Below, one piece after another: positions 3,058-59,609 of a stretch of DNA of 64,000 bases. Within the stretch, counting starts at the first letter, position 1, and each line of letters opens with the position of its first letter. The notes below the pieces were generated by a model. It was not told the origin of the DNA and searched no databases. It was given only the letters and a program-made list of their open reading frames with translations. The DNA comes from Alistipes sp. (lineage in GTDB: Bacteria > Bacteroidota > Bacteroidia > Bacteroidales > Rikenellaceae), in contig JAZLDX010000025.1 of NCBI GenBank assembly GCA_045614985.1, positions 39,177 to 103,176 on the forward strand, given 5' to 3'. The translations under genes and the position numbers were made by a program.

Positions 3058-4209
3058 ATGAAAAAACTTTTTCTTTTGGTGCTGTGTGCTGCTTTCGCAG
3101 TAAACACCTACGCACAGGAGGGTGAGGCTCCGGCCAAAAAACCGAGCAACAAAGGCTTTGTAACCAACGGATTCTGGGACAACTGGGAGATCTCGCTGGG
3201 TGTGGGAGCCGACTACGAGGGCATCGCCCTGGGTCACGACTACGGCAAGGCTGCCAAGACCATCGGTCTTGAGGTCAATGGCGCCCTTACGAAGTGGTTC
3301 CACCCCATCTGGGGTGTTCGCGGTCAGTTGCAGGGCGGCTTCACCATGGGTTACAAGAGCCCCACGGCTAAGGCCCGCACGGTGACCAACTTCCTCTTCG
3401 CCCACGCTGACGCTATGATGAACTTCTCGAACTGGGTAGGTGGCTACCGTGAGGATCGCGTATACTACGCCGTTCCTTTCCTTGGCTTCGGTTTGCTGGC
3501 TCAGGACGTATTCAACGGCAAGGTGTCCAACAACTACGAGTTTGCCGCCACGATCGGTCTGTTGAACAAGTTCCGCGTATGCAAGTGCGTAGACATCAAC
3601 CTCGAGCTGAAGGGTTGGGTTTATCCCGAGAACGACCACAGACTCGCTCGCGGTGGTCGTCTGATCACCTCGTTCAGCGCCACGGTAGGTGCTTCGTACC
3701 GCTTCGGTAAGCGCGACTGGGATCGCAAGGTGGCCGCTACCACCTCGGGTGCCGACGCTGCTGCTTATGCCGCTCTGCTCGCTGAGAAGGATGCCGCCCT
3801 GGCCGCTGCTGCCACCGAGGCTGAGGCTCTGCGCGAGGCTGCCAACAAGAAGCCCGTAGAGGTGGTTGTTGAGAAGCAGGTAGATGTTTATGTAGGTGGC
3901 AAGACCGTGGTATTCTTCTCGCTGGGTAGCACCAAGCTCACCGACCACGAAAAGATCACGCTCGACCTGAAGGCCGACCAGATCAAGAATGGTCCCGCCA
4001 AGAAGGTATACATGATCGAGGGTCACGCCGACTCGAAGACCGGTACCGCCGCTACCAATATGCGCGTATCGGAGGCTCGTGCCAAGGCCGTTTACGACTA
4101 CCTCATTGAGAAGGGTGTAAAGGCTGAGCAGCTTCAGTACAAGGGTGTTGGTGACAAGGCTGAGCCCTTCACGACGGCTGAGACGAACCGTGTAGCCATC
4201 ATCGACTAA
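3058..4209 (+). CDS. OmpA-family outer membrane protein
   Basis: Signal peptide, aromatic beta-barrel N-terminus, Ala-rich linker, C-terminal OmpA domain (FSLGS...GHADSKTG...N..VSEARAKAV...NRVA); TACCTTTG promoter at 2981-2988. Confidence 0.9.
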   Translation: MKKLFLLVLCAAFAVNTYAQEGEAPAKKPSNKGFVTNGFWDNWEISLGVGADYEGIALGHDYGKAAKTIGLEVNGALTKWFHPIWGVRGQLQGGFTMGYKSPTAKARTVTNFLFAHADAMMNFSNWVGGYREDRVYYAVPFLGFGLLAQDVFNGKVSNNYEFAATIGLLNKFRVCKCVDINLELKGWVYPENDHRLARGGRLITSFSATVGASYRFGKRDWDRKVAATTSGADAAAYAALLAEKDAALAAAATEAEALREAANKKPVEVVVEKQVDVYVGGKTVVFFSLGSTKLTDHEKITLDLKADQIKNGPAKKVYMIEGHADSKTGTAATNMRVSEARAKAVYDYLIEKGVKAEQLQYKGVGDKAEPFTTAETNRVAIID

Positions 4210-4334
4210 TTTTAGCGTGATAAGCGGCTGTCTGTTGCTGCTAAGAATAAACCCGACAATGGGACGTACCAAGTACTGCCCATCGTCGGGTTTCTTCGTC
4301 GAGCGTTGCAGCCAACCGCTTCTGACGCTAAAAT
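4209..4334 (-). repeat. Palindromic intergenic repeat unit, GTAC-loop-GTAC family (copy A, 126 bp)
   Basis: Nested stems ATTTTAGCGT/ACGCTAAAAT, AAGCGG/CCGCTT, AAACCCGAC-AATGGG/CCCATC-GTCGGGTTT around AC-GTAC-CAA-GTAC-TG. Confidence 0.8.
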
Positions 4335-4350
4335 CCCCCTCCAAAGGAAT

Positions 4351-4374
4351 TTTCATGTCGGCACGGAATTTCCT
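4351..4374 (-). repeat. Isolated arm fragment of the same repeat family
   Basis: TTTCATGTCGGCACGGAATTTCCT is the exact reverse complement of AGGAAATTCCGTGCCGACATGAAA at 59397-59420. Confidence 0.85.
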
Positions 4375-4402
4375 TAACACCCTCTCACCCCTATTACCCC
4401 AA

Positions 4403-4430
4403 ATTGTGAATTGTGCATCGTGAATTGAAA
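4403..4430. repeat. Tandem heptamer repeats (ATTNNGA type)
   Basis: ATTGTGA ATTGTGC ATCGTGA ATTGAAA. Confidence 0.6.
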
Positions 4431-4481
4431 TAATTTCTTATTCCTCTCTGCGAATTCCCAATTATTTCGTACCTTTGTCGT

Positions 4482-5570
4482 ATGCGGTTAGAGAAACTAT
4501 CCCTCATCAACTTCAAGAACATCGCCCAATTGGAACTTCGGTTGGGTGAGGGCATCAATGGCTTTGTCGGAGATAATGGTGCCGGGAAGACCAATATCAT
4601 CGATGCGGTCTACTACCTCTCGATGTGTAAATCGGCCCTCCCCACGACCGACGGGCAGAATATTCGCCACGAGAGCGACTTCTTTTTGGTCGAGGGAAGC
4701 TATCGTACCGATGAAGGGAAGACAGAGCAGGTAGTGTGTAGTTTTTCGCGCAAGGGGGGTAAGGTACTTAAACGCAACGGAAAGGAGTATGAGCGGCTGT
4801 CGGATCATGTGGGGTTGATCCCCGTAGTGATTGTCTCGCCGGCCGACACAACCCTGATCAGCGATGCGGCCGATGAACGCCGCCGCTACCTGAACGGTTT
4901 CATCTCGCAATTGGATCGAGGCTACCTGATGGCAGTCATGCGCTACAACGCCGTGTTGGGCGAACGAAACAAACTGCTGAAGGTCTCCTCGGACGAGGAT
5001 ATGTTGCAGATCTACGACCTGCAGCTCGCCGAGCAGGCGGCCCTGATCCACCGCCTACGCCGAGAATACATCGAACGCCTCACCCCCCTGGTGCAGGAGT
5101 TCTACCGCGCCCTGTCGGAGGATCGCGAACAAGTATCGCTTGAGTATCGTTCGGAGTTGAATGAGGCTCCGCTGATGGAGATCCTGCAACGCAACCGCCA
5201 ACGCGACCTTGTGAATCAATTCACCACCTCGGGCATTCACCGCGACGACCTGATCCTTAAGATCGGGGGCTATCCGCTGCGGAAATACGGCTCACAAGGG
5301 CAGCAAAAATCCTTCCTGATCGCCCTAAAGTTGGCTCAATATCAGATCATTGCCTCGGAGTGCAACGAGCGACCCATCCTGTTGTTGGATGACCTGTTCG
5401 ACAAGTTGGATGCAGGGCGCGTAACACAACTTCTACGCCTGGTGGGAGCCGAACAATTCGGCCAGATCTTGATCACGGATTGCAACCCTACGCGCCTGCA
5501 GACGACCCTCGATCGTGCCGACACCCCCTATCAACTCTTTACGGTTACGGGAGGAACCGCCACCCAATGA
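4482..5570 (+). CDS. recF: DNA replication/repair protein RecF
   Basis: NFKNI, Walker A GDNGAGKT, GIHRDDL, GSQGQQKS, LLLDDLFDKLD. Confidence 0.95.
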   Translation: MRLEKLSLINFKNIAQLELRLGEGINGFVGDNGAGKTNIIDAVYYLSMCKSALPTTDGQNIRHESDFFLVEGSYRTDEGKTEQVVCSFSRKGGKVLKRNGKEYERLSDHVGLIPVVIVSPADTTLISDAADERRRYLNGFISQLDRGYLMAVMRYNAVLGERNKLLKVSSDEDMLQIYDLQLAEQAALIHRLRREYIERLTPLVQEFYRALSEDREQVSLEYRSELNEAPLMEILQRNRQRDLVNQFTTSGIHRDDLILKIGGYPLRKYGSQGQQKSFLIALKLAQYQIIASECNERPILLLDDLFDKLDAGRVTQLLRLVGAEQFGQILITDCNPTRLQTTLDRADTPYQLFTVTGGTATQ

Positions 5571-5857
5571 GACGCACCAAAACCCTTTTGATGGGCGAAC
5601 TTCTCGAGGAGTTCTTCCAACGCCCCTATGTGGCCGCCAAGGTGGCCGAGGGTCGCCTGCCCGAGACCTGGCGGGCGATCGTGGGCGAACACGCTGCGAA
5701 CGATACAGCCGAATTGAAATTGGAAAATCATGTACTCTATGTACGGATGCGCTCCTCGATTCTGCGCTCCGAACTCTTCTATCAGCGCGAGGCACTGCGC
5801 CTTGAAATCAACGAAAAATCAGGGGTAAAGTTGGTTAATGCGGTGATTATTCGCTAA
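5567..5857 (+). CDS. dciA: DUF721/DciA-family protein
   Basis: ATGA overlap with the recF stop; 96 aa with W..IVG...A..T...LYV...SSILRSEL pattern; typical recF neighbour. Confidence 0.75.
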   Translation: MRRTKTLLMGELLEEFFQRPYVAAKVAEGRLPETWRAIVGEHAANDTAELKLENHVLYVRMRSSILRSELFYQREALRLEINEKSGVKLVNAVIIR

Positions 5858-6058
5858 ATCACACCCATTTTCCATGTTTTTTGGTTGCTTTTCTCTTTTT
5901 TTCGGAAAAAAGCACTAACTTTGCGTGTTATTGCGCCCTTACCCTAAAAAGCCCGAGGGGCAAAGGGGTGGCAAAATACGAGAGACCTTGCAGCCAAGGA
6001 CTAAAACGAAAAGAAAAACAAAGAATTGAAATAATTGAAAAACTAAAAAATAAGAGTT

Positions 6059-6748
6059 ATGGCAAAAGAGAAGATTTTGAAGCCCGAAGAGGAGACCTTA
6101 GGTGTCGCCATGGGCAAGACCGAGCGTTTCCTGGAGGAGCACTCGAAGACGGCAAGCTACTGCATTATCGCCCTGCTGGTGTTAGGTGCCGCTATTTTTG
6201 GTTATAAGAAGCTCATCTCGGAGCCCCGCATCGAGAAGGCTGCCGAGCTGATCGCCGAGGCTCAGAACCGCTTTGCGGAGGAGACCCCCGACTTCCAGCT
6301 CGCCCTGGAGGGTGATGCCAACGGTGCCGGCTTCCTCGAGGTGATCGAGCAGTATGGTTCGACCCCTTCGGGCAACCTGGCCAAGCACTGCGCCGGTATC
6401 TGCTACTACAAGCTGGACGACATGGAGAACGCCACCGCCTACCTGAAGAAGTATAAGGCCGTAAAGGGTCTGCCGGGCGCCATCGTCAATGCCCAGAATC
6501 TGGGTCTGCAGGGTGATATCGCACTGGAGCAGGGCGACTACGCCGCCGCCGTAGCCCTCTACGAGAAGGCCGTAGCTGCTGCCGAGAACAACTACACGAC
6601 GCCCCTCTACCTGCGCAAGGCCGGTATCGCCGAGCAGTTGCAGGGCAACAAGGAGGCTGCCGAGAAGTTCTTCCAGCGCATTCTGACCTCCTACCCCGCC
6701 TCAATGGAGGCTCGTGAGGCCGAGAAGTTGATGGGTGCCAACAACTAA
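6059..6748 (+). CDS. Membrane-anchored tetratricopeptide repeat protein (YfgM-like)
   Basis: Single TM segment followed by helical TPR-like repeats (GNLAKHCAGICYY, YLRKAGIA); TAACTTTG promoter at 5916-5923. Confidence 0.8.
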   Translation: MAKEKILKPEEETLGVAMGKTERFLEEHSKTASYCIIALLVLGAAIFGYKKLISEPRIEKAAELIAEAQNRFAEETPDFQLALEGDANGAGFLEVIEQYGSTPSGNLAKHCAGICYYKLDDMENATAYLKKYKAVKGLPGAIVNAQNLGLQGDIALEQGDYAAAVALYEKAVAAAENNYTTPLYLRKAGIAEQLQGNKEAAEKFFQRILTSYPASMEAREAEKLMGANN

Positions 6749-6766
6749 CCCCAGAGACTAAAAACC

Positions 6767-7270
6767 ATGGTGCGTATCTCCGGATCCTCGAAAAACCTCA
6801 CCCTGCCGGCGGCCGATGAGATGGCCTTTGGCGTTGTGGTGGCCGAGGCCCACGGAGAGATCACCGGAATCCTCCTCGAGGGGGCGATGCGCACCCTCAA
6901 AGAGGCCGGCTGCCTGGAACACAACATCCAAATCAAGAGCGTGCCGAACCTCATGAGCCTTCCGATGGCCACGCAGTTCTTCGCCGAATATACCGACGTA
7001 GATGCCGTGATCCTCCTCGGATGCCACCTCTCGACAGAGGGTAACAACCCGCTCATGGGCCCCATCGCCCAAAATGTACTCCAAATCCAGATGCAGTGGA
7101 ACATGCCCTGCGCCTGGGGTGTAGTCGAGGCCGTGGAGCGCGGGGCAGCCTTCGAGCAAAGCGACCGAGGAGTCCTCGCCGCCGCCGAGGCTATCCGCAT
7201 GGTGCGTATGCAGATCGACATGGAGGCCGCCTCCCCCAACGCCAACCCCGACCGCCGAAACCTGAATTAA
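6767..7270 (+). CDS. ribH: Divergent 6,7-dimethyl-8-ribityllumazine synthase (RibH) homologue with degenerate active-site motifs
   Basis: FGVVVAE..EITGILLEGA..TL...G, DAVILLGC, PCAWGV fold motifs; recF-TPR-ribH synteny; catalytic motifs altered. Confidence 0.65.
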   Translation: MVRISGSSKNLTLPAADEMAFGVVVAEAHGEITGILLEGAMRTLKEAGCLEHNIQIKSVPNLMSLPMATQFFAEYTDVDAVILLGCHLSTEGNNPLMGPIAQNVLQIQMQWNMPCAWGVVEAVERGAAFEQSDRGVLAAAEAIRMVRMQIDMEAASPNANPDRRNLN

Positions 7271-7351
7271 CCCTGGGGGGGGCAGAGTTGGATCCAGCGT
7301 TTAGAGGCAAGGATTGGAAGCACAAAATAATAATTAAGAACCAAAAACACA

Positions 7352-7387
7352 AATAAGCGGGTCACCCGAAAAGGTGACCCGCTTATT
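7352..7387. terminator. Hairpin between convergent genes
   Basis: AATAAGCGGGTCACC-CGAAAA-GGTGACCCGCTTATT, perfect 15-bp stem. Confidence 0.75.
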
Positions 7388-7405
7388 GATTGAATAGCGC
7401 GAAGA

Positions 7406-7810
7406 CTACCGTACGCGAGAAAGGTTTATATAATAGAGTTCACCATCATCCCAAACGCCGATGACTGCCATATTGCCGGAGATCGTAATCAACTCATAAA
7501 CCTCCGTCTCATAACCATAGGTGAAGACCAATCGACGAGTCAAATCGTCATAACTCCAACGGAAGGCATCAAACTCATCATTGCCAGACTCCAGGTCTAC
7601 CTCACGCCAAACACCCGTGCCATCGGCATTGAGCGTAATCATGACATAATAACCATAGTTGGCCTCAGTACGCCAAGTACCCACCAGACTTGCCGCGGTA
7701 CCCGAGAGTTGAGTACCCGCCTTCTGCTCATCATCGCCTCCACACGAGGTCATAGCTCCTGCCCCCAACATGAGGGCTGCAGCCATCAAAAAAGTCAAAA
7801 ATCGCTTCAT
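7406..7810 (-). CDS. Hypothetical lipoprotein (lipocalin-like beta-barrel possible)
   Basis: Lipobox MTSC; LVGTW motif and F.W.Y beta-strands. Confidence 0.7.
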   Translation of the reverse strand: MKRFLTFLMAAALMLGAGAMTSCGGDDEQKAGTQLSGTAASLVGTWRTEANYGYYVMITLNADGTGVWREVDLESGNDEFDAFRWSYDDLTRRLVFTYGYETEVYELITISGNMAVIGVWDDGELYYINLSRVR

Positions 7811-7998
7811 AAAGGTAAAAATTTATTGATTGGTAATTTTCATTTTGGCCATCAAGTGTCTTCACAAACCTGCACTTTACAAGTGCAAAGATACGAAAAA
7901 AAGAAAACCTTCGGCCTCCACCGTATAAAAATTGTGCGCAAAGCGTAAAATTCGGTAAATAAAGCGTATCTTTGTATAGACACGAAAAACTTACACGC

Positions 7999-9585
7999 AT
8001 GAAAAAGCTCCTTTCCCGCATCGCTCTTGGGGCGATGGCTCTTCTGATGCTCGCCGGCACCGTGCATGCCGAGGAGTTGCTCTTGGTTCCCCAACCCCTC
8101 TCTGCTGTACTCACCGGAGGTATTTTCAAGGTGACGGCCAAGACCCCGCTGATCGTGGAGTCGGGCGATGAAAATCCGGCCCGCATCTTTGCCGAGCAGA
8201 TGATGCCCCTCTTCGGGCAGAAAAAACCGATGACCATCACGACTCGGGGGGAGGGAATCCGCCTGAGCATCGACCCCACATTGGCCGCCGAGGGCTACCG
8301 GATGGTAACTACCAAAAAGGGGATTCGTATCTCGGGAGGCACTGAAGCGGGGATCTTCTACGGCCTGCAGAGCCTTCGACAGCTGATCCACACCTACGAG
8401 GGTCGCATCCCCTGTGGGGAGATCCTCGATGCCCCGAACTTTGCCTACCGCGGGGCCCACTTTGATGTCTGCCGCCACTTCTTCACGGTCGAGGAGGTAA
8501 AGCGCTACATCGACATCCTCGCGGCCCACAAACTCAACCGTCTCCATTGGCACCTAACCGACGACCAGGGGTGGCGCATCGAGATTAAGGCCTATCCCGA
8601 ACTCACAGAGAAGGGCTCCATGCGCAAGGAGACCCTGATCGGCCACTGCCACCGTCCCGAGGGATTCGACGGAATCCCCTATGGAGGCTACTACACACAA
8701 GAACAGATTCGAGAGGTGGTAGACTACGCCGCAAAACGCTATATCACAATTGTCCCAGAAATCGAAATGCCGGGTCATGCCCAAGCGGCCCTCCATGCCC
8801 TTCCGTGGCTTGGATGCCAAGAGCAAAAGGTCGATGTGTGGTCCATGTGGGGCGTAACTCCCGAAGTAATGTGCGGAGGCAAAGAGACGACCTATGAGTT
8901 TTTAGAAACGGTGTTGAGTGAGGTGATCGAGTTGTTCCCCTCGGAGTTGATCCACATCGGTGGCGACGAGTGCCCGAAGGAGCGCTGGAAGGTCTGCGAG
9001 CATTGCCAGGCCCGCATGGAGGCCCTCGGCTTGGAGAGCGAGAACCAACTGCAAGGTTACCTAATCGAGCGCATCGAAAAGTTCCTGAACGGTTATGGTC
9101 GCCGCCTGATCGGTTGGGACGAGATCCTGGAGTGTGGCGTTACCCCCACGGCCACGGTGATGTCGTGGCGCGGCACGGAGGGGGGCATCACCGCCGCCAA
9201 GCGTGGCAACCAGGTAGTGATGACCCCCATGGAGCCCTGCTACTTCGATTTCTACCAAACCAAGAGCCAGGAGGGCGAAGGATTGCAGATCGGAGGCCAC
9301 GTCTCTTTCGAGAAGGTCTATGCGTGGGATCCCTATAAGGGGTTGAACGAAGAGGAGAAAAAGTACATCCTCGGGGTGCAGTGCAACCTCTGGACAGAGT
9401 ATATCCTCGACTTTGAGACCGTGGAGAAGAAACTCCTGCCTCGCCTGGCCGCCCTTTCAGAGGTGCAATGGGCTACGGAGCGTCGCAACGAAGCGACCAT
9501 CCGTCCTCGCATGGAGCAACTGCGTAAATTCTACGAGGCCTACGACTGGAACTACGCACCCTACTACTTCGAGGGGCGCGAGTAA
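7999..9585 (+). CDS. Beta-N-acetylhexosaminidase, GH20
   Basis: D.P.F.YRG.H.DVCRHFF, HWHLTDDQGWR, PEIEMPGH, catalytic HIGGDE; signal peptide; start moved to ATG 7999 downstream of TATCTTTG (7967-7974). Confidence 0.93.
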   Translation: MKKLLSRIALGAMALLMLAGTVHAEELLLVPQPLSAVLTGGIFKVTAKTPLIVESGDENPARIFAEQMMPLFGQKKPMTITTRGEGIRLSIDPTLAAEGYRMVTTKKGIRISGGTEAGIFYGLQSLRQLIHTYEGRIPCGEILDAPNFAYRGAHFDVCRHFFTVEEVKRYIDILAAHKLNRLHWHLTDDQGWRIEIKAYPELTEKGSMRKETLIGHCHRPEGFDGIPYGGYYTQEQIREVVDYAAKRYITIVPEIEMPGHAQAALHALPWLGCQEQKVDVWSMWGVTPEVMCGGKETTYEFLETVLSEVIELFPSELIHIGGDECPKERWKVCEHCQARMEALGLESENQLQGYLIERIEKFLNGYGRRLIGWDEILECGVTPTATVMSWRGTEGGITAAKRGNQVVMTPMEPCYFDFYQTKSQEGEGLQIGGHVSFEKVYAWDPYKGLNEEEKKYILGVQCNLWTEYILDFETVEKKLLPRLAALSEVQWATERRNEATIRPRMEQLRKFYEAYDWNYAPYYFEGRE

Positions 9586-9621
9586 CCCCACCCAACCTCG
9601 ATCCGCATTTTCGATTTAGCC

Positions 9622-10520: not shown

Positions 10521-10522
10521 TT

Positions 10523-11190: not shown

Positions 11191-11196
11191 AACAGC

Positions 11197-14206: not shown

Positions 14207-14307
14207 GCACAATGCACAATACACGATTCAAAATTCAAAATTCACAACGAAACTGAATGTTTCGGCTCGACAAAGAAAAATTTTGAATTTTGAATTCTGA
14301 ATTTTGA
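14207..14307. repeat. Inverted pair of tandem heptamer arrays
   Basis: Left arm GCACAAT GCACAAT ACACGAT TCAAAAT TCAAAAT TCACAAC; right arm ATTTTGA ATTTTGA ATTCTGA ATTTTGA. Confidence 0.8.
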
Positions 14308-14348
14308 ATTATTTTGTACCTTTGTCCTTTACGAAAAAAACCGAAATC

Positions 14349-21058: not shown

Positions 21059-21100
21059 CAACGAAAGCGCCTCTCCCTTTTCGGAGAGGCGTTTTCGTTG
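21059..21100 (+). terminator. Terminator after the MBL gene
   Basis: CAACGAAAGCGCCTCTCC-loop-GGAGAGGCGTTTTCGTTG. Confidence 0.7.
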
Positions 21101-21123: not shown

Positions 21124-21241
21124 TTTTTGATTTTAGGAGAAGATATTTTGCGCTAACGCAAACTACCCCGAATGGGAGGTACTTGTGTACCCCCCATTCG
21201 GGGTAGTCAAGGCGGTGCAAAATTTACTGCATAAATTAAAA
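21124..21241 (+). repeat. Palindromic intergenic repeat unit, GTAC-loop-GTAC family (copy B)
   Basis: ACTACCCCGAATGGG-AG-GTAC-TTGT-GTAC-CC-CCCATTCGGGGTAGT; outer ATTTTGCGC/GTGCAAAAT stem; left end TTTTAGGAGAAGATATT resembles TTTTAGGCGAGGATATT at 59501. Confidence 0.85.
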
Positions 21242-21242
21242 C

Positions 21243-21788
21243 CTATTTGGTGCGATAATGCGCACGATATTTCCCCTTGGTAAGGTTCGTGAGTTTGTTC
21301 TTGAGTAGATTGCGGCGCAGGGGCGAGAGGTGGTCGGTAAAGACCTCGCCCTCGAGGTGGTCGTACTCGTGCTGAATCACGCGAGCGGGCAATCCCTCGA
21401 TCCACTCATCGTGCTCATTGAAATCCTCATCCATCCAACGCATGCGGATGGCAATGGGACGGCGCACATTCTCATGCAGACCTGGCAGGGAAAGACACCC
21501 CTCATTGAAGAGGTCCGTCTCCTCCGACTCCTCAAGGATCTCGGCATTGATGAAAGCCTTACGATAATCGGCCAACTCGGGATGTTCCTCGGCCCAGGGG
21601 GTGCAATCCACCACAAAGAGGCGGATATTCTTACCGATCTGGGGGGCTGCAAGACCTACGCCCTCGGCCTCGCGCATGGTGAGAAACATATCCTCGATGA
21701 GCTTCTTCAGATCGGGGTAGTCGGGGGTGATATCCTCCGAAATATTTCTCAAAATCGGAGAGCCATAGATGACAATCGGGTAAATCAT
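21243..21788 (-). CDS. def: Peptide deformylase
   Basis: GVGLAAPQIG, EGCLSLP, QHEYDHL. Confidence 0.97.
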   Translation of the reverse strand: MIYPIVIYGSPILRNISEDITPDYPDLKKLIEDMFLTMREAEGVGLAAPQIGKNIRLFVVDCTPWAEEHPELADYRKAFINAEILEESEETDLFNEGCLSLPGLHENVRRPIAIRMRWMDEDFNEHDEWIEGLPARVIQHEYDHLEGEVFTDHLSPLRRNLLKNKLTNLTKGKYRAHYRTK

Positions 21789-25226: not shown

Positions 25227-26945
25227 ATGGCTACAATTTCACGACAGGCCTACTGCGACCTCTTCGGTCCGACGGTAGGCGATAAAATCCGCCTCGGGGA
25301 TACGGATCTCTATGTAGAGATCGAAAAGGATCTGCGCGTTTACGGCGACGAGGTGGTCTATGGCGGAGGCAAAACCTTGCGCGATGGCATGGGGCTGGCC
25401 AACGGCACCTCATCGAAAGAGGGGTCGCTCGATCTGGTCATCACCAATGTAACGATCATCGACCCCGTACTGGGCATCGTTAAGGCGGATGTTGGGATCA
25501 AAGATGGTAAAATTGCCGGCATCGGCAAATCGGGAAACCCCGACACGATGCCCGGGGTCTCGCCCGAATTGGTTACAGGAGCCTCGACCGATGCCATCTC
25601 GGGCGAGCATCTGATTCTGACGGCAGGCGGTATTGACGGCCATGTCCACATGATCGCCCCGCAGCAGGCCGAGGCGGCCCTCTCGAACGGAATTACCACC
25701 CTGATCGGGGGTGGCGTGGGCCCCACGGATGGCACCAACGGCACGACAATCACCTCGGGGGTTTGGAACGTGGAGCGCATGTTGGAGGCGGCCGAAGCAT
25801 GGCCGGTCAACATCGGGCTGTTGGGCAAGGGGAACTGCTCGGGCAAACAATCCGTAGCCGAACAACTCGAAGCGGGCTGCTGTGGTCTGAAGATCCACGA
25901 GGATTGGGGCTCTACCCCCCAGGCGATTCGCACCGCCCTGAAGGTGGCCGACCGCTACGATGTACAGGTAGCCATCCACACCGACACCTTGAATGAGGGG
26001 GGCTATGTCGAGGATACGATTGCCGCCTTCGAGGGACGCACGATCCACACCTATCACACCGAGGGTGCAGGCGGAGGCCATGCCCCCGACCTGTTGAAGG
26101 TGGCCTCGATGCACAACGTCCTCCCTTCGTCCACCAACCCCACCCTGCCCTTCGGCATCAACTCGCAGGCCGAGCTCTTCGATATGATCATGGTGTGCCA
26201 CAACCTCAATCCGAAGATCCCCTCCGATGTTTCGTTTGCCGAGAGCCGCGTACGCACCGAGACACAGGCCGCCGAAAATATGCTCCACGACCTGGGGGTA
26301 TTATCCATGGTTTCGTCCGACTCCCAGGCCATGGGACGCGTGGGCGAGAGCTTCATGCGCACCTTCCAGATGGCCTCCTACATGAAGCAGGCTTGCGGAA
26401 GGCTGAAGGAGGACTGCTCCGAGAACGACAACTTCCGCGTCAAGCGTTACTTGGCGAAGATCACCCTCAACCCAGCCATCTGCTTCGGCATTTCGGACTA
26501 TGTGGGCTCGATCGAAAAGGGCAAGGTGGCCGACCTGGTCCTGTGGGATCCCGCCATGTTCGGAGCCAAGCCCAAGATGGTGATCAAGGGCGGCATGATC
26601 AGCTGGGCCAACATGGGCGATCCGAACGCCTCGTTGCCCACCCCGCAACCGATGTGCTACCGTCCGATGTTCGGAGCCTACGGATCGGCCCTCAAGCGCA
26701 GCTGCATCTCCTTCGTATCGCGAGCAGCCTGCGAACTCGGCATCAAAGAGCGTTTGGGCCTCGAGCGTTGCGTGAAGCCCGTTCACCACACCCGACAGCT
26801 CACCAAAGAGCACATGTGGATGAATGGCTCGACCCCCAAGATCGAGGTAGACAGCCAAACCTTCGAGGTGCGCATCAACGGAGAGGTGGTATCGCTCAAG
26901 CCGACCGAAAAGGTGGCTCTGGGACAACTCTATTGGTTCAGCTGA
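25227..26945 (+). CDS. ureC: Urease alpha subunit
   Basis: Ni ligands and flap intact: [49 protein letters not shown]. Confidence 0.98.
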
Positions 26946-50683: not shown

Positions 50684-50685
50684 GG

Positions 50686-54224: not shown

Positions 54225-54296
54225 GCCGAAATAGCTCAGCGGTAGAGCACTTCACTCGTAATGAAGGGGTCCCGAGTTCAAATCTCGGTTTCGGCT
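54225..54296 (+). tRNA. tRNA-Thr(CGT)
   Basis: GCCGAAA-TAGCTCAGCGGTAGAGCA-CTTCACT-CGT-AATGAAG-GGGTCCCGAGTTCAAATCTCGG-TTTCGGC-T; CCA not encoded. Confidence 0.96.
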
Positions 54297-54303
54297 CAAG
54301 GCA

Positions 54304-54339
54304 AAAAGGACGAAAATATTTTCGTCCTTTTCTTTTTTT
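54304..54339 (+). terminator. Terminator after tRNA-Thr
   Basis: AAAAGGACGAAA/TTTCGTCCTTTT stem followed by a T tract. Confidence 0.75.
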
Positions 54340-54440
54340 GCACCCCACCTATTTTTATTACCCTAAAGTATTCGGAAAATTAAGACCTAAATCGTGTGAT
54401 TTTTATTACTTTTGTAGGAGAAAACAAATAAAAATACGAT

Positions 54441-55916
54441 ATGGTAACCTTTTTGATCTGTTTGGCGATGCTCATAGGGGCCTATTTCACCTACGGACGT
54501 TATTTGGAGCGAGTCTGCGAAATCGATGCAAAAAACCCCGTCCCCTCGAAAACCTGCTACGACGGAGTCGACTATCTCCCCCTTCCGCGCTGGAAGATCT
54601 TTCTGATTCAGCTCCTCAACATTGCCGGCCTGGGTCCCATCTTCGGAGCGGTGCTGGGTGCCGCCTACGGCCCCGTGGCCTTTCTGTGGATCACCCTCGG
54701 AGGCATCTTCCTTGGAGCCATGCACGACATGATCTCGGGTGTAATCTCCCTGAAGCAGAACGGCATGAGTCTTCCGGAGATCATTGGCGACCTCTTGGGC
54801 GACAAGGTGAAGCTCTTCATGCGCCTCTTCTCGGTGCTGCTGATGGTATTGGTGGGAGCCGTCTTCCTCTCGCAGCCCGCCAACCTCATCGACTTCCGAC
54901 TTGACATCCCCGGCCTCGAAGGCGTAGTCTTCGGAAACTACAGTTGGACTCTGCTCCTGATTTTGGGGGCGATACTCGTCTACTACGTCCTGGCCACACT
55001 GCTGCCCATCGACAAGATCATTGGCAAGTTCTATCCCATCTTCGGCCTGGCCCTGCTTATCATGGCCCTGGGGATCCTCTTCGTGCTGCTGACCCAGAGC
55101 GACAAGTACCCCATTCCGGAGTTCACGTCGTTTGAGAATATGATTGCCAACCGCGAGAAGTTCCCTCTTCTTCCGATGCTCTTCACGACGATCGCCTGCG
55201 GAGCTATCTCGGGCTTCCACGCCACACAGTCGCCCCTGATGGCGCGCTGCATGACCAACGAGACACAATGCCGCTCGATCTTCTACGGAGCGATGATCGC
55301 TGAGAGCATCATCGCTCTGATTTGGGCTGCCATCGGCATGGCTTTTTGGGGCGGTGTGCAAGGGCTCAACGAGGCAATTGCCACCCACGGAGGCAATGCC
55401 GCCATTCTGATCAACCAAATTGCAACCGAGACCCTCGGTCCTACGATTGCCAGCCTAGTGATCTTCGGTGTGATTGCCTGCGCTATCACCTCGGGCGATA
55501 CCGCCTTCCGCTCAGCGCGCCTAATTGTAACCGACTTCCTTAAAATCGAACAAAAGAACCTCAGCAAGCGCATCTATGTTTCTTTGCCGCTCTTTGCCTT
55601 GGGTCTCTTTATCATCCTCGTCCTGCCATTCCAAACCATTTGGAGCTACTTCGCCTGGTGCAATCAGACCCTGGCAGCCATTACCCTGTGGGCCATCACG
55701 GTCTACTTGGCCAAGCAACGAAAGCCGATTTGGATCGGTCTGCTTCCCGCCCTCTTTATGACCTTTGTCTGCAGCAGTTACATCTTTGTATCGCCCCTGA
55801 TGTTCGGACTCAAAAGCCGCCTTACAGCCTACCTATTGGGAGGGCTCCTCACGCTGATCATCCTGGGTGCAGTACTCAAACTCATAAGAAAATATGCTCA
55901 TGAAAAACACGCCTAA
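54441..55916 (+). CDS. cstA: Carbon starvation protein A (CstA) transporter
   Basis: IAGLGPIFG, GAMHD, IACGAISGFHATQSP, AITSGDTAFR. Confidence 0.92.
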   Translation: MVTFLICLAMLIGAYFTYGRYLERVCEIDAKNPVPSKTCYDGVDYLPLPRWKIFLIQLLNIAGLGPIFGAVLGAAYGPVAFLWITLGGIFLGAMHDMISGVISLKQNGMSLPEIIGDLLGDKVKLFMRLFSVLLMVLVGAVFLSQPANLIDFRLDIPGLEGVVFGNYSWTLLLILGAILVYYVLATLLPIDKIIGKFYPIFGLALLIMALGILFVLLTQSDKYPIPEFTSFENMIANREKFPLLPMLFTTIACGAISGFHATQSPLMARCMTNETQCRSIFYGAMIAESIIALIWAAIGMAFWGGVQGLNEAIATHGGNAAILINQIATETLGPTIASLVIFGVIACAITSGDTAFRSARLIVTDFLKIEQKNLSKRIYVSLPLFALGLFIILVLPFQTIWSYFAWCNQTLAAITLWAITVYLAKQRKPIWIGLLPALFMTFVCSSYIFVSPLMFGLKSRLTAYLLGGLLTLIILGAVLKLIRKYAHEKHA

Positions 55917-56604
55917 ATACACCTTGATCCCCACCGCAGAACAGACCTTCGAGTTGGAGGGCTCGGGACCTTGGGATTTTCGTAAACGTCTCCGTACGGC
56001 CGAGGAGTTACAACGCTCAGGGCAGATCGAAGCCGCTTGCGAGGAGCGGTACCGCGCCGTGCAGCTCATCGAGGAGCTTCTGCCCGAGGAGGAGGAGATC
56101 AACCTCGAGTGGAACCACCCAAATAGCCGGGCCGCCCTGGAACTGATCCACAGCTCGGCCATCGACCACTTCTTGATTGGGGACTTCGAGCTCTCGGCAG
56201 CCCTCTTGGAACTCTGCCTCGAACTCGACCCCGAAGACCACCTTGAGGCGGTCAATCTCTTGGGATTCGACTATGTAGAACTCGGTGAGTACGAACTCTG
56301 CGAGGAGGTCTTGCTCGACATCTCCGAAAAGAGCCCCATGTGTCCCCTGCTGACACTTTGGCTCGCCTTCCGTCGAAGCGGAGAGTTGGCTGCCGCCCCG
56401 TTGCAGCACCTCAAGAGCCGCCACACGGCCCTCTTCGAGGAGTTCACGGCCGAGGAGCACCCCGCAGACGAAGCCTTCATTAAAGAGATCAACTCCGAAC
56501 GCCCCTCCGCACGCGCCCAGGCCCGCGAAGTGTGGCTCCAAACCGAACCCCTGTGGGCTCTACACCCCGAATTTATCTCCGCCCTCAAGGCTGCCAAGGG
56601 ATAA
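55900..56604 (+). CDS. TPR-like hypothetical protein
   Basis: All-helical; LELCLELDPEDHLEA..LL...Y. Confidence 0.7.
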   Translation: MKNTPKYTLIPTAEQTFELEGSGPWDFRKRLRTAEELQRSGQIEAACEERYRAVQLIEELLPEEEEINLEWNHPNSRAALELIHSSAIDHFLIGDFELSAALLELCLELDPEDHLEAVNLLGFDYVELGEYELCEEVLLDISEKSPMCPLLTLWLAFRRSGELAAAPLQHLKSRHTALFEEFTAEEHPADEAFIKEINSERPSARAQAREVWLQTEPLWALHPEFISALKAAKG

Positions 56605-56795
56605 AAAGAGGTGAAGTATGAAATCTTTTTCTGCTCGAAAATCGAGAAAAAACGGGGCTCGGGAGGAAAAAACCACCGGAAAAGAGATAAAAAAGGTGGA
56701 AATGTTTGGTAAATCGGGAAAATCGTTTTACCTTTGCACTCCGCGAAATGTGATTATTTGAGCAATAAATAACTAAAAACGAGATAGCTATGGCA

Positions 56796-56957
56796 ATGAA
56801 AAGAACTTACCAGCCTTCGCGCCGCAAGCGTATTAACAAGCACGGTTTCCGTCAGCGTATGGCAACCGCCAACGGTCGCAAGGTATTGGCCGCACGTCGT
56901 GCCAAGGGTCGCAAGAAGCTGACCGTTTCGGACGAGTCGACCTTCAAGTACGCTTAA
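56796..56957 (+). CDS. rpmH: 50S ribosomal protein L34 (not in the ORF track)
   Basis: [53 protein letters not shown]. Confidence 0.98.
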
Positions 56958-56977
56958 TTCCCTCGGGAATTGGCCAT

Positions 56978-57016
56978 AGAATGGGGTGGTGCAAGGCATC
57001 ACCCCATTCTGTTTTT
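56978..57016 (+). terminator. Terminator after rpmH
   Basis: AGAATGGGGTGGTGC-AAG-GCATCACCCCATTCT-GTTTTT. Confidence 0.85.
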
Positions 57017-57132
57017 GATTTTATAGGGCAGATTTCACCTTGCCTTGCGCGCCCCGAATGGGTAGTACCTCTAGTACAACCCATCCGGGACTTGCTACGT
57101 TAAATCGAAATCTGCTCCTCTAAAATCAAAAA
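57012..57132 (-). repeat. Palindromic intergenic repeat unit, GTAC-loop-GTAC family (copy C, 121 bp)
   Basis: TTTTTGATTTTA/TAAAATCAAAAA, GGGCAGATTTC/GAAATCTGCTC, CCCGAATGGG-TA-GTAC-CTCTA-GTAC-AA-CCCATCCGGG. Confidence 0.85.
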
Positions 57133-57231
57133 AACGGGTGGCGTATTGGGAGTCTAAAAAAGGAATTTTGAATTATAATAATTCCCAATTATTTATTATC
57201 TTTGTATATCGAACCCGAACCAAAAGAGATT

Positions 57232-58530
57232 ATGGCTATTTTTCAAGTAGAAGGCGGACACCGCCTGCATGGTGAAATCACCCCGCAAGGAGCCAAGAAT
57301 GAGGCTCTTCAGATCCTCTGTGCCACGTTGCTGACCCCCGAAAAGGTGATCGTAAGAAACGTGCCCCAAATCCTGGATGTGCTCCAACTCATCGAGTTGC
57401 TGAAGGCGATGGGGGTCGAGGTGGAAAAACTCTCCGACGACTGCTACTCGTTCCGCGCTGCCGAGATCAACCTCGACTACCTGCAGAGTGAGGATTACCG
57501 CCGTCGTGGAGCCAAGTTGCGCGGTTCGGTGATGATGCTCGGCCCGCTGTTGGCCCGTTTCGGAGTAGCCTACATCCCCAAGCCCGGAGGCGACAAAATC
57601 GGTCGCCGTCGCCTGGATACCCACTTCCTCGGATTCCAAAAATTGGGGGCCGAATTGGATTTTGCCGCAGGCAAGGTCTCAGCCAAGGAGTTGAAGGGTA
57701 CCTACATGCTCCTGGACGAAGCCTCGGTAACGGGTACGGCCAATATCGTGATGGCCGCCGTTTTGGCCAAGGGGACGACCACGATCTACAACGCCGCCTG
57801 CGAACCCTACCTGCAGCAACTCTGCAAGATGCTCAACCGCATGGGAGCAAAGATCTCGGGTATCGCCTCGAACCTGCTGACCATCGAGGGCGTGGAGTCG
57901 TTGGGAGGCACCGAGCACACGATGCTTCCCGACATGATCGAGGTGGGTAGTTTTATCGGCATGGCGGCCATGAACCGCTCGGAGCTTCTGATCCGCAATG
58001 TGTCGTTCGAAAATCTCGGTATTATCCCCACCCAATTTGCCCGCATGGGTATACAGTTCGAACAGCGGGGCGACGACCTATACATCCCGCAGCAGGATCA
58101 CTACCGCATCGAGACCTTTATGGATGGGTCGATCATGACCATCGCCGATGCTCCGTGGCCGGGTCTCACGCCCGACTTGCTGTCGATCTTCCTGGTGGTG
58201 GCCACCCAGGCCAAGGGAGCTGTACTGATCCACCAAAAGATGTTCGAGAGCCGCCTCTTCTTCGTCGATAAGTTGATCGACATGGGGGCCCAGATCATCC
58301 TCTGCGACCCCCACCGTGCCACCGTGATCGGACACAACCACGAGGTGCGCCTGCGCGCTACGCGCATGTCCTCGCCCGACATCCGTGCCGGCGTGGCCCT
58401 GCTGATTGCCGCCATGTCGGCCGAAGGGGTCTCGACCATCCAGAATGTGGATCAGATCGACCGCGGCTACCGCGACATCGACCGCCGACTGAATGCTCTG
58501 GGAGCAAGAATCACCCGCCTCGACGAGTAG
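57232..58530 (+). CDS. murA: UDP-N-acetylglucosamine 1-carboxyvinyltransferase
   Basis: GAKNEAL, LRGS...LGPLLAR, PGGDKIGRR.LD.H (Asp-type loop), SVTGT.N, IDRGY. Confidence 0.96.
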   Translation: MAIFQVEGGHRLHGEITPQGAKNEALQILCATLLTPEKVIVRNVPQILDVLQLIELLKAMGVEVEKLSDDCYSFRAAEINLDYLQSEDYRRRGAKLRGSVMMLGPLLARFGVAYIPKPGGDKIGRRRLDTHFLGFQKLGAELDFAAGKVSAKELKGTYMLLDEASVTGTANIVMAAVLAKGTTTIYNAACEPYLQQLCKMLNRMGAKISGIASNLLTIEGVESLGGTEHTMLPDMIEVGSFIGMAAMNRSELLIRNVSFENLGIIPTQFARMGIQFEQRGDDLYIPQQDHYRIETFMDGSIMTIADAPWPGLTPDLLSIFLVVATQAKGAVLIHQKMFESRLFFVDKLIDMGAQIILCDPHRATVIGHNHEVRLRATRMSSPDIRAGVALLIAAMSAEGVSTIQNVDQIDRGYRDIDRRLNALGARITRLDE

Positions 58531-58583
58531 GTTAAAAACACCATATAGGTATAACTGCAACAAATAAGGAAAAGAATCGAAAT

Positions 58584-59162
58584 ATGTTTTTGGAAAGTTC
58601 AACAAAGAAGGGCTGGATCGAAGTGATTTGCGGCTCGATGTTCTCGGGCAAGACCGAAGAGCTGATTCGCCGCATGAAGCGTGCGAAGTTTGCCAACCAG
58701 CGGGTCGAGATCTTCAAGCCCCGTATTGATGTACGATATTCGGAGGAGGAGGTCGTGTCGCACGACTCGAATGCCATCCGCTCCACCCCCGTGGATTCGG
58801 CACAAACCATCCTACTGATGGCCTCGGATGTGGATGTAGTGGGTATTGACGAGGCCCAGTTCTTCGACGAGGGAATCGTAGAGGTCTGCCGCAAGTTGGC
58901 CGACAACGGCGTGCGCGTCATCCTGGCCGGATTGGATATGGACTACCTGGGAAAGCCCTTTGGTCCGATGCCCGCCTTGATGGCTACGGCCGAGTATGTT
59001 ACCAAGGTACATGCTATCTGTGTTCGCTGTGGCAACCTAGCCCACCACTCGCACCGCCTAATTGTGGATGACAAACAGGTGGTCTTGGGAGCACAGGACA
59101 GCTACCAGCCCATCTGCCGCCACTGTTTCACCGAAGCCATGAAGGCCAAGAAAAACGAATAA
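58584..59162 (+). CDS. tdk: Thymidine kinase
   Basis: [31 protein letters not shown]...Y.PICR.C. Confidence 0.96.
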
Positions 59163-59208
59163 CATCAATCGGTCAAAAAGGCCTGATTATTTCGAGATTA
59201 AACTTTTT

Positions 59209-59243
59209 AAAGCCTACCTAATCAATGGTTAGATAGGCTTTTT
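59209..59243 (+). terminator. Terminator after tdk
   Basis: AAAGCCTACCTAA/TTAGATAGGCTTT stem with a T tract. Confidence 0.65.
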
Positions 59244-59264
59244 CATATATAGCGGAATGAGATG

Positions 59265-59609
59265 TTAGGCAAGGGTATTCCGTGCCGACATGAAATTGGG
59301 GCGGATGGGTAGTACTTTCGTACGTCCCATTCACCCCAAGGATTGAAATGCGAAATTTTCCCCCCCTATTGCATGGTAAAGATGGGATACTAAGCGAGGA
59401 AATTCCGTGCCGACATGAAATTGGGGCGGATGGGTAGTACTTTCGTACGTCCCATTCACCCCAAGGATTGAGGTGCGGAATTTACCGCTTAGATTAGTCG
59501 TTTTAGGCGAGGATATTCCGTATATCGTAATAAGAAACCCGGGCGGGTAGTACTTGAGGTACGTCCCGCTCGGGTTTTGTTTAGGATATGCGGAATCTAC
59601 CGCATAAAA
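59265..59609 (+). repeat. Tandem array of three palindromic units, GTAC-loop-GTAC family (copies D, E, F)
   Basis: 70 bp identical at 59277-59346 and 59402-59471 (offset 125); third unit 59501-59609 keeps the fold with different stem sequence. Confidence 0.9.

Follow-up and report, generated by a model that had tools for sequence, protein, structure and literature searches.

What are the long palindromes that recur between the genes of gut Alistipes, and what sets them where they lie? The question is raised by a 64,000-nucleotide stretch of an Alistipes sp. contig, the window throughout this text, in which a first-pass annotation had pointed out six intergenic units, each an imperfect hairpin capped by the same apex, and had read them as either non-autonomous mobile elements or RNA/ssDNA elements of 3' UTRs.

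Hairpin units and their conserved apex

All six units were confirmed, and a 51-member HMM returned just these six in the window. The first, u1 (4207..4334, + strand; HMM match 4210-4332 (+), E 2e-21; fold -63.4 kcal/mol), runs in the sense of an OmpA-family gene (3058-4209; OmpA Pfam match), starts at its TAA stop codon (4207-4209) and was found in four of the four DNA runs examined. Adjoining u1 on its distal side, at 4351..4374 (+), is a 24-nt distal-arm remnant of an older u5-type copy, 100% complementary to 59397-59420; this right-arm remnant is a seventh piece, to be added to the six units. The second unit, u2 (21124..21241, - strand; HMM match 21237-21124 (-), E 4e-17; fold -61.2), is also gene-sense, its first base lying 1-2 nt past the TAG stop (21243-21245) of a peptide deformylase gene (def; 21243-21788, - strand; Pep_deformylase Pfam match). 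A separate intrinsic-terminator-like hairpin, AACGAAAGCGCCTCTCC...GGAGAGGCGTTTTCGTT, can be read from the sequence at 21060..21099, between an MBL-fold gene and u2, and u2 is therefore not the terminator of either neighbor. The exception in the window is u3 (57012..57133, + strand, gene-sense; fold -54.8; HMM match 57012-57132, 68.6 bits on + versus 39.7 on -), which is placed downstream of rpmH (56799-56954; Ribosomal_L34 Pfam match) after a terminator, not after a stop codon: a terminator scan called the rpmH intrinsic terminator at 56976..57016 (+; 17-pair stem 56976-57012, tail TTTTGATTTT), and the first bases of u3 are its T-tract. The remaining three form an array on the - strand behind a PFOR (nifJ-like) gene (59613-63143, - strand). 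The gene-proximal copy, u6 (59494..59612; HMM match 59494-59610; fold -69.7), lies 3 nt past the TAG stop (59613-59615); the middle copy, u5 (59386..59491; HMM match, E 8e-20; fold -57.2), has both arms shortened at the feet; and the distal, partly degenerate third copy, u4 (59262..59364; HMM match), nearly duplicates u5 (direct repeat D1: 90% identity over 105 nt at a spacing of 125).

The unit is about 125 bp long (120-130 nt), and every one of the six folds as a single long imperfect hairpin, the RNA MFE ranging from -42 to -70 kcal/mol. The cap GGG-NN-GTAC-(3-5)-GTAC-NN-CCC was found on the units as described. The looser pattern GTAC-N2-8-GTAC occurs nine times in the window versus 1.4 expected, the three surplus matches falling in coding sequence and not being elements, and ATGGGNNGTACN{3,5}GTACNNCCCAT occurs five times versus none in 100 shuffles; the apex of u6 deviates, reading GCGGG...CCCGC. 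Across the family the apex is nearly invariant (ATGGG-NN-GTAC-loop-GTAC-NN-CCCAT), and conservation is greatest there, not at the ends. The feet are conserved as TTTCTTGTGATAAGG.../...CCTTCTGACAAGAAA, in the window as TTTTTGATTTTATRGG.../...CCYCTAAAATCAAAAA, and mid-stem modules are interchangeable between units. The window-type unit extends slightly beyond the termini proposed earlier, to ATTTTTGATTTTAGG...CCTAAAATCAAAAAT.

The stems had been described as compensatory, and an alignment of 51 sequences over a 43-pair hairpin, with shuffles and slid partners as controls, bears this out. Paired cells made up 83.2% versus 67.1% in shuffles and about 40% with slid partners, double-change cells numbered 355 versus 136, and the covariation score was 0.41 versus 0.15 and 0.10 in the controls. 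Both this covariation and the strand asymmetry discussed below are partly inherited, and the copies are therefore not independent.

The annotation had proposed a search for more copies in other Rikenellaceae, and many were found. A minimum of 119 genome stretches carry the apex pattern, MAGs of Alistipes, Rikenellaceae or unclassified Bacteroidales accounting for 115 of them, and the HMM gave 210 unique matches across 1.1 Mb of fetched loci, nearly all from uncultured Alistipes/Rikenellaceae gut MAGs. Many of the stretches with the apex pattern sit at contig ends, and the repeats thus fragment Alistipes MAG assemblies. An Rfam scan of the whole window at gathering thresholds returned only two tRNAs and a 5_ureB_sRNA, all elsewhere than in the units, and an E-value scan of 59200-59650 gave spurious eukaryotic matches only. 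With no plasmid or phage match to the repeat, and no paper describing it found in a literature search, the annotation's remark that this is not a named family stands; the hairpin repeat is common in gut Alistipes and apparently undescribed so far.

These data leave next to no room for an assembly artefact or for terminator-like hairpins that arose by chance, in favor of which there is only the intergenic position of the units. Chance hairpins are refuted by the shuffle counts for the apex, by the covariation and by further copies, which run to hundreds of related sequences in independent assemblies. Nor are the units intrinsic terminators: past the hairpins there is no T-run, the AAAT that closes the distal arm giving way to G-rich sequence, and the terminator scan passed over all of the units and called only the separate rpmH terminator.

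Placement directly behind stop codons

The chief regularity of the family, overlooked in the first-pass annotation, is that units abut stop codons in a fixed orientation. Among 160 near-full copies, 82 begin no more than 6 nt from the stop of an ORF that is 100 codons or longer, and in 47 of the 160 this distance is exactly 0 nt. Another 22 near-full copies lie 116-140 nt from a stop and seven lie at 236-270 nt, that is, one or two unit lengths out, in tandem arrays. Orientation relative to the stop-abutting gene was always the same, and no convergent ORF ended at the distal end of a unit. The statement that copies occur in both orientations is correct for strands; when each unit is compared with the gene that it follows, there is a single orientation. 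It is the gene that orientation follows, since GC skew in the window is single-signed while units face both ways on the + strand.

New copies immediately follow the stop codon of an ordinary gene, a TAA or, less often, a TAG. Stops at the junction were TAA in 62 cases, TAG in 10 and TGA in 2, versus a background of 49/30/21%, and the base just beyond the distal arm is complementary to the last base of the stop (A-T in 30/36, G-C in 7/8). No conserved upstream motif was seen at the junction besides the stop codon itself, and in filled and empty def orthologues the stop codon is at an identical position. The abutted genes are housekeeping genes, including those for EF-Ts, DnaN, PFOR, def, L17 and OmpA, and 135 Pfam families are represented upstream.

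The units follow the stop codon but precede the real terminator and are hence carried in 3' UTRs; metatranscriptome contigs of the OmpA-family gene extend 35-45 nt into u1. About 125-400 nt of structured sequence is in this way added to housekeeping 3' UTRs in abundant gut bacteria, which may affect mRNA stability, and several of the genes given the extra sequence are of kinds that are usually highly expressed.

The two strands of the unit are not equivalent. With DNA parameters, 139/148 copies fold more stably as the complement of the upstream mRNA than as the sense strand, and with RNA parameters 90/103 do; the sense fold is weaker by about 10 kcal/mol. Sense A-C mismatches, which are antisense G-T pairs, number 492 versus 131 (p 4e-50); G-T wobble pairs are retained on the mRNA-complementary strand alone.

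This asymmetry bears directly on the view that the repeat is a functional 3'-UTR module, transcribed along with the upstream gene (a 3' exonuclease block, an RNase III or protein-binding site, or a sensor of translation termination) and kept at stops by selection, which we consider unlikely. A unit that begins at the stop upstream of the true terminator, mRNA contigs that reach into u1, an invariant apex and covarying stems are all what one would hope to see of such a module, and many abutted genes, judged by gene kind alone, are of usually highly expressed kinds (EF-Ts, L17, L34, OmpA, PFOR). However, the wobbles are kept on the complement of the mRNA, the sense RNA having the A-C mismatches, and orthologues in sister species lack the unit. 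Where RNA contigs stop within u1, contigs from DNA runs break as well, so that these ends do not demonstrate processing, and the dissimilar tandem units, decayed remnants and strain presence/absence at housekeeping genes described below resemble selfish turnover. The RNA/ssDNA reading of the annotation is thus weakened in its simple RNA version, both by the identity of the wobble strand and by the separate terminators near u2 and u3.

Signs of mobility and the search for a mobilizing enzyme

Support for a mobile element, the other reading offered by the annotation, comes from near-identical copies and strain polymorphism. Dispersed pairs behind unrelated genes in one genome are up to 98% identical, with 8 of 135 pairs at 90% or above; tandem neighbors are usually dissimilar, with a median identity of 66%. 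One three-unit array is common to the 3' flanks of two different genes, and in arrays degenerate remnants lie distal to intact copies. Within the PFOR array, u6 is a presence/absence polymorphism at strain level, missing from contigs of three metagenome runs and from L020 (joint 59492->59620), and the copy number of u4/u5 varies by strain, contigs L122 and L123 from other samples being one unit short here. At the def site that holds u2, some 10 species have a unit of another subfamily and sister species have none; no clean filled/empty pair was obtained among near-identical genomes. The strain-level length polymorphisms that the repeats create could be used for typing.

Target duplications, for which the annotation had suggested a comparison, did not appear. 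Among 132 copies, flank matches of 1, 2, 3 and 4 nt numbered 37, 5, 3 and 0, no more than chance. The shortage of 2-nt matches (5/132) is one reason why a classical MITE is a distinctly unlikely origin; such an element would be what internal deletion leaves of a DDE-transposase IS, with terminal inverted repeats (TIRs) by which it is cut and pasted into AT-rich targets. The feet do act like TIRs and define subfamilies, multi-unit arrays seem to move as composites, and a TA duplication is one way to read the flanks of two young copies (L031) and of u6; against this, u1 is without a target-site duplication (TSD), no duplication of fixed length accompanies the inverted feet over the 132 copies, orientation is strictly fixed to the gene, which a palindromic TA target would not yield, the apex is conserved above the ends, and a search of the 1.1 Mb, of plasmids and of phages turned up no parent IS or transposase.

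The link to a RAYT/HUH nuclease proposed earlier likewise found no support: no ORF with an HUH...Y (Y1) motif was present in the window or in the 1.1 Mb around 210 copies, a sample in which only about one would be expected. Multi-copy transposase or recombinase gene clusters near copies were absent from the loci examined, as were split copies with long inserts. Candidate movers would be a single-copy HUH/RAYT-type nuclease or a recombinase acting on hairpins.

With modest confidence, we favor the view that the units are non-autonomous, REP/BIME-like mobile repeats specific to Alistipes/Rikenellaceae, whose folded single strand integrates at TAA/TAG stops. Most likely, the repeat spreads as selfish DNA by way of a trans-acting enzyme. 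Movement would require that this enzyme recognize the folded single strand, which we take to be the complement of the mRNA because only that strand keeps the G-T wobbles. The conserved apex is a putative protein-binding site, and the stop trinucleotide may be read partly via complementarity to the base or bases beyond the distal arm. Arrays would grow by fresh insertions at the stop that displace older copies distally to decay, a picture that the remnant at 4351-4374 fits; any effects on mRNA would be secondary.

Several points count against the mobile-repeat reading, among them the failure to find a mobilizing enzyme in the 1.1 Mb. An element whose apex exceeds its ends in conservation would be unusual among transposons. 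Another objection concerns the stops themselves: an enzyme acting on DNA cannot read frame, and a TAA/TAG target combined with purifying selection would lead one to expect many copies at other intergenic TAAs, yet the association with true stops, some 50-75%, exceeds what such a simple model gives. An improbable but more radical reading is a new class of "stop-codon-homing" DNA, in which the hairpin would insert at the first base after an in-frame stop, in an orientation set by the gene, either through coupling to expression (e.g., a DNA state where translation ends and transcription continues) or through a recombinase that uses base pairing to read the template-strand hairpin along with the stop trinucleotide; successive homing would build the arrays, and the GTAC-loop-GTAC apex would be the recombinase handle. 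If the placement rule does stem from the integration mechanism, the repeats would count among the rare mobile DNAs that are targeted to gene ends and not to a long sequence, and the short element with its sharp rule would offer a tractable system for finding the enzyme. Should it be merely another selfish palindromic repeat, it would still add a missing entry to what is catalogued for a major gut genus.

Relation to known repeat families

Several well-known families resemble the Alistipes units in part. Correia elements of Neisseria, ERIC/IRU of enterobacteria, and RUP and BOX of pneumococcus are intergenic, about 100-150 bp long and able to form full-length hairpins; they are co-transcribed with their neighbors, split into subfamilies and can break assemblies. 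The Alistipes units share all of these properties; as these families are usually described, the units differ from them in having no TSD, a fixed orientation, stop-codon placement and a conserved apex. MITE-like families with known parents carry TIRs plus a TSD (TA in Correia). In the MIRUs of mycobacteria, short tandem intergenic repeats, the ends overlap the upstream gene's stop codon; MIRUs, however, are not long hairpins but direct repeats that lie inside operons and contain small ORFs.

The integron attC site, 57-141 bp long, invites closer comparison. Like attC, the Alistipes unit, whose size is inside this range, is an imperfect palindrome that directly follows an ORF and is fixed in orientation, its better-folding strand is the template strand of the ORF, as is the attC bottom strand, and its stems conserve structure above sequence. 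That attC-like sites, folded as bottom-strand hairpins for a tyrosine recombinase, are scattered behind chromosomal genes is nevertheless highly unlikely. The boxes R''/L'' and L'/R' (RYYYAAC/GTTRRRY) are absent from the alignment consensus; attC sites conserve the base and vary at the tip, whereas the reverse is true here; the upstream genes are housekeeping genes and not cassettes; the units stack without ORFs between them, outside any cassette array next to intI; and no integrase or multi-copy recombinase/transposase cluster was in view in the loci.

For the favored reading of a folded, integrating single strand, the IS200/IS605 elements (IS608, ISDra2) serve as a working analogy. They are strand-specific, leave no TSD, insert 3' of a short target that is read by base pairing with the element, and have hairpins read on one strand. 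However, they possess two distinct subterminal hairpins and tnpA, whereas the Alistipes unit is one hairpin without a gene, and their orientation follows replication, not the neighboring gene.

The closest likeness is to the RAYT/TnpA-REP-associated REP and BIME sequences of Proteobacteria, which are high-copy extragenic palindromes in the 3' regions of genes, form mosaics and tandem clusters with other short motifs, lack a TSD and are believed to transpose as folded single strands via a single-copy HUH enzyme. REP-like repeats and their enzymes have barely been studied in Bacteroidota. The annotation had brought in REPs and REPINs for comparison, and an identity with REPs does not hold: a REP is a 20-40-nt imperfect palindrome with a conserved GT[AG]G (or CGTC) tetranucleotide at the foot, whereas the Alistipes foot starts (TAA)TTTCTTG or TTTTTGATTTTA without such a tag, GTAG being confined to the interior of one apex subtype. 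A REPIN also forms a long hairpin, but from two inverted REPs; the Alistipes unit is one 125-bp hairpin whose arms have no recognizable REP-like sub-unit and whose conservation peaks at the apex, not in two REP cores. Its orientation and stop-codon rule, moreover, is near absolute, unlike that of REPs. The REPs of the Bacteroidetes TnpA-Y1 subclass 2.6 are 24-nt hairpins, again unlike these units (PMC6006769). REP ends have themselves been reported as a source of TAG stops for neighboring ORFs (PMC3733652).

Hairpin units in the window and beyond

The first-pass annotation placed six palindromic units in the window, and re-reading the sequence confirms all of them: u1 (4207-4334, +), u2 (21124-21241, -), u3 (57012-57133, +), and an array of u4 (59262-59364, -), u5 (59386-59491, -), and u6 (59494-59612, -). 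Each of the six window units folds into a single long hairpin, with an RNA minimum free energy of -42 to -70 kcal/mol. The GTAC apex exceeds chance: GTAC-N2-8-GTAC occurs 9 times in the window versus 1.4 expected, and six of the nine matches are the units; the remaining three (5732, 7668, and 42907) lie in coding sequence and have no palindrome around them. A longer apex pattern, ATGGGNNGTACN{3,5}GTACNNCCCAT, occurs 5 times in the window and 0 times in 100 shuffles; the apex of u6 differs from that of the other five units (GCGGG...CCCGC). An HMM built from 51 family members matches exactly the six units in the window, and a 24-nt decayed arm at 4351-4374, beyond u1, is the remnant of a seventh.

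Next to the GTAC helix, each copy has an asymmetric internal loop, from which its direction can be read. Read along the upstream gene, the common form is stop codon, TTTCTTGTGATAAGG, middle stem, G A ATGGG (AC/CA) GTAC GYCAA GTAC (TA/AG) CCCAT C C, middle stem, CCTTCTGACAAGAAA T; the feet, or outer ends, are TTTTTGATTTTATRGG/CCYCTAAAATCAAAAA in the window type and TTTTTCGTGAAAAGG/CCTTTTGACGAAAAA in other subfamilies. The GGG/CCC and GTAC/GTAC pairs do not vary across 51 diverse copies, and the seven pairs just below them carry double compensatory changes in 10-28 of 51 sequences. The claim of compensatory stems is borne out over a 43-pair hairpin in these 51 sequences: 83.2% of cells are paired, versus 67.1% after shuffling and approximately 40% with partners slid; double-change cells number 355, versus 136 and 104-143, respectively; and the covariation score is 0.41, versus 0.15 and 0.10, a contrast inflated because the structure was derived from the same alignment, but with a margin that is still large.

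An apex-pattern scan of 185,579 species genomes returned at least 119 stretches. Among the matches listed, 115 come from Alistipes, Rikenellaceae, or unclassified Bacteroidales/Bacteroidetes MAGs of ruminant, human, and mouse guts; four others (Oscillospiraceae, Algibacter, Propionibacteriales, and Yoonia) have the apex without the rest of the element. Many apex matches lie only 15-65 nt from a contig end, and thus the repeat breaks assemblies. With the HMM, we identified 210 unique copies in 1.1 Mb of fetched loci. Neither a gathering-threshold Rfam scan of the window nor an E-value scan of the array gave a relevant match, and against Rfam the first-pass view that this is not a named family holds. 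Blastn searches of PLSDB plasmids and INPHARED phages gave no match to the repeat, and the apex pattern was found twice in 2.9 million IMG/VR contigs; the repeat is therefore essentially absent from viruses. The closest reports in the literature searched were general REP/RAYT surveys, and no description of the element was found. The finding is real, with no prior description in Rfam, in the plasmid and phage collections, or in the literature searched.

Placement at stop codons and the folding strand

The main new result is where the units sit. Once copies are oriented alike, long ORFs are seen to terminate at the hairpin foot on just one of its two sides. In 160 unique near-full copies from the HMM census, we measured how far the first base of the unit lies from the stop of an ORF with 100 or more codons. 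This distance was no more than 6 nt in 82 of the 160 (exactly 0 in 47), 116-140 nt in 22 (the second unit in an array), and 236-270 nt in 7 (the third); in 10 more, the ORF ended inside the foot, at its TGATAA. Several copies classed as "other" also adjoin TAA stops, the ORFs there being cut by the locus edge. A convergent ORF ending at the distal end was seen in 0 of the 160. The stops at these junctions are TAA in 62 cases, TAG in 10, and TGA in 2, versus 49%, 30%, and 21% for long ORFs in the same DNA (p = 1e-5 for the shortage of TGA). The palindrome itself extends into the stop codon; past the distal arm, the next base is T for 30 of 36 copies that follow TAA and C for 7 of 8 that follow TAG. 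Upstream of the junction stop, nothing is conserved beyond the three-base periodicity of coding sequence, and peptide deformylase orthologues stop at the same codon with or without a following unit.

The window copies illustrate the pattern. The first base of u1 is at the TAA of the OmpA-family gene, u2 begins 1-2 nt past the TAG of the peptide deformylase gene (def), and u6 begins 3 nt past the TAG of the pyruvate:ferredoxin oxidoreductase (PFOR) gene, with u5 and then u4 stacked behind it. Unit u3 lies downstream of rpmH, in rpmH sense, after the rpmH terminator, whose T-tract forms the first bases of u3. Pfam agrees with the genes originally named beside the units (OmpA-family protein, MBL-fold protein, peptide deformylase, L34, thymidine kinase, and PFOR) and adds RecF and an EPSP-synthase-family enzyme. 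The statement that copies occur in both orientations stands for the + strand, on which units point both ways; it fails relative to the gene, where all six obey the one-orientation rule. GC skew keeps one sign over the whole window while the units face both ways, which argues, from only four loci, that orientation follows the gene and not replication.

The stems are also asymmetric between strands. Transition-type mismatches on the gene-sense strand are A-C in 492 cases versus 131 of the reverse (p = 4e-50), and the excess runs in this direction in 117 copies versus 9; nearly all copies inherit one apex-adjacent mismatch, so these counts are not independent, but the mean is still 3.8 versus 1.0 per copy. 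Each A-C mismatch in the sense strand corresponds to a G-T wobble in its complement; accordingly, the hairpin is more stable on the strand complementary to the upstream mRNA: -61.2 versus -50.5 kcal/mol with RNA parameters (lower in 90 of 103 copies, p = 1e-16) and -32.7 versus -27.2 with DNA parameters (lower in 139 of 148, p = 3e-25).

Purifying selection alone seems too weak to produce so strong a bias to true in-frame stops over other intergenic TAA/TAG, which would allow for a mechanism linked to gene expression.

Turnover and the nature of the element

Of 135 pairs of dispersed copies compared inside individual MAGs, 8 show identities of 90% or more (up to 98%), with the two copies behind unrelated genes; between genomes, only 1.2% of the pairs sampled reach this level. 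Neighbours in arrays are usually unlike (median identity of 66%, with only the u4/u5 pair of the window reaching 90%), and arrays therefore stem mostly from separate arrivals and not from slippage. One three-unit array is common to the 3' ends of two different genes, the similarity beginning at the stop codon. In the window array, u6 is missing from contigs of three metagenome runs and a related MAG, and two other assemblies carry one unit in place of u4/u5. The 3' site of def holds different subfamilies in approximately 10 species; sister species that are similarly diverged have no unit there. A TAA or TAG is retained at about one-third of internal array junctions, which, together with the decayed arm distal to u1, fits a series of insertions at the stop, each pushing older copies outward. 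No clean empty site was found behind def (relatives are approximately 80% identical, too diverged), behind L34 (contigs with the exact protein belong to other species), or for u1 (the exact OmpA-family protein is not on record).

Copies also take up insertions and exchange parts. In L030, a 57-nt segment is nested within the GTAC apex of one copy (approximately 3880-3940), and a small hairpin of approximately 80 nt interrupts the right arm in L026, L038, and L082. Partial HMM matches proved to be contig-edge truncations or copies with small nested inserts, not split (autonomous) copies. Two copies of one genome (L042 5270-5560 and L060 7640-7930) have near-identical feet, followed by an almost identical G-rich tail of 55 nt ending in the terminator-like AAAAGGCGTTGCCTTTTT, and their hairpin interiors differ; thus, modules recombine, and the three parts (hairpin, tail, and terminator) may move as one 3'-end module. 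In other genomes, too, the G-rich tail moves with the unit; it may represent an older foot that has decayed, or else a module of its own. As a pre-existing target it was rejected, its pattern (TTGGGTnGTGG) being at chance level in the window.

An RNA function would account for the carriage of units in 3' UTRs, often behind genes of usually highly expressed kinds, and this explanation keeps some weight; the strand asymmetry and the selfish-looking turnover speak against it. Metatranscriptome contigs end 35-45 nt into u1; however, DNA contigs break at the same place, so these ends are an assembly effect and not processing. Nor are the units intrinsic terminators: they have no T-run, a terminator scan calls none of them, and separate terminators are present.

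What the data show is a high-copy, structured repeat with recent duplications; its copies directly follow TAA/TAG stops in a single orientation, with one strand favoured for folding and without duplication of flanking bases. Target-site duplication, raised in the first-pass annotation, is lacking overall (2-nt flank matches in 5 of 132 copies), which sets the units apart from classical MITEs; u6 and two L031 copies can be read as having a TA duplication, and u1 and most copies cannot. They are not attC sites: R/L boxes are lacking, the genes upstream belong to 135 Pfam families of housekeeping kind, and units are stacked without ORFs between them. Size, the lack of a GT[AG]G foot, and conservation that is highest at the apex set the units apart from canonical REPs and probably from canonical REPINs; the REPs of Bacteroidetes TnpA-Y1 subclass 2.6, unlike these units, are 24-nt hairpins (PMC6006769). 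The element is best filed with small palindromic intergenic repeats of the REP/BIME/MITE kind, from which its apex-conserved single hairpin, template-strand folding bias, and stop-codon placement rule distinguish it.

Such a repeat would most likely spread through a trans-acting enzyme that makes or moves copies by acting on the folded hairpin of the template strand; the putative binding site of this enzyme is the invariant apex. Integration would occur beside the stop trinucleotide, read partly by pairing with the distal end of the unit, and such reading would resemble that of IS200/IS605 elements. The RAYT/HUH enzyme envisaged near the units did not emerge from a crude screen of all six frames of the 1.1 Mb for an HUH...Y motif. 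An all-against-all blastp of 1349 ORFs near copies gave only orthologue clusters and no transposase, and a Pfam scan of 70 abutted proteins gave ordinary housekeeping families; these searches cover approximately 8-kb samples from approximately 100 genomes, in which a single-copy gene would probably be missed. The variable stem was also considered as a guide to nearby sequence and dismissed, since 10-mer matches are at chance after masking of elements.

Other repeats near the units and in the window

After the def stop in L148, L149, and L167 lies a shorter hairpin of approximately 50 nt, TAG GGTAGTGGCTGAAATGGGAATGTAGTTTTGTACCCAGCTGCCATAAC, whose tip is GGG..GTAC-like and whose foot is similar to the G-rich tail; it is possibly a mini relative, likewise starting at the stop codon. 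The distal flanks of units in seven loci (L015, L037, L055, L078, L079, L102, and L106) contain arrays of 7-9-nt tandem repeats (TAGGGAATTT and similar) followed by the same repeats inverted, which makes another type of long palindrome next to the units. In seven others (L002, L004, L007, L019, L029, L072, and L089), a recurring module, GGTTCTTTGGAnnCTATTTCCA...TGTCATTCTGAGGAGCG...GAATCTC, forms a short REP-like palindrome family in fixed order after TTTTCGTGAAAAGG-type units.

Within the window, AATTCAAAATT / GAATTTTGAATT units are densely packed, both inverted and in tandem, in intergenic DNA at 14211-14310. A motif of approximately 35 nt, GAATT..AATTATTT.GTACCTTTG, occurs just upstream of gene starts at 2901-2935, 4452-4486, 14299-14333, and 57179-57213; it resembles the Bacteroidetes TAnnTTTG promoter region. 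A gathering-level Rfam match at 25377-25677 (-) to 5_ureB_sRNA, a Helicobacter antisense sRNA model, probably reflects conserved urease coding sequence rather than an sRNA. Finally, each of ten contigs from different samples (L206-L215) that encode the exact L34 protein has its first base 1-3 nt upstream of the rpmH start codon, which suggests another assembly-breaking repeat just upstream of rpmH.
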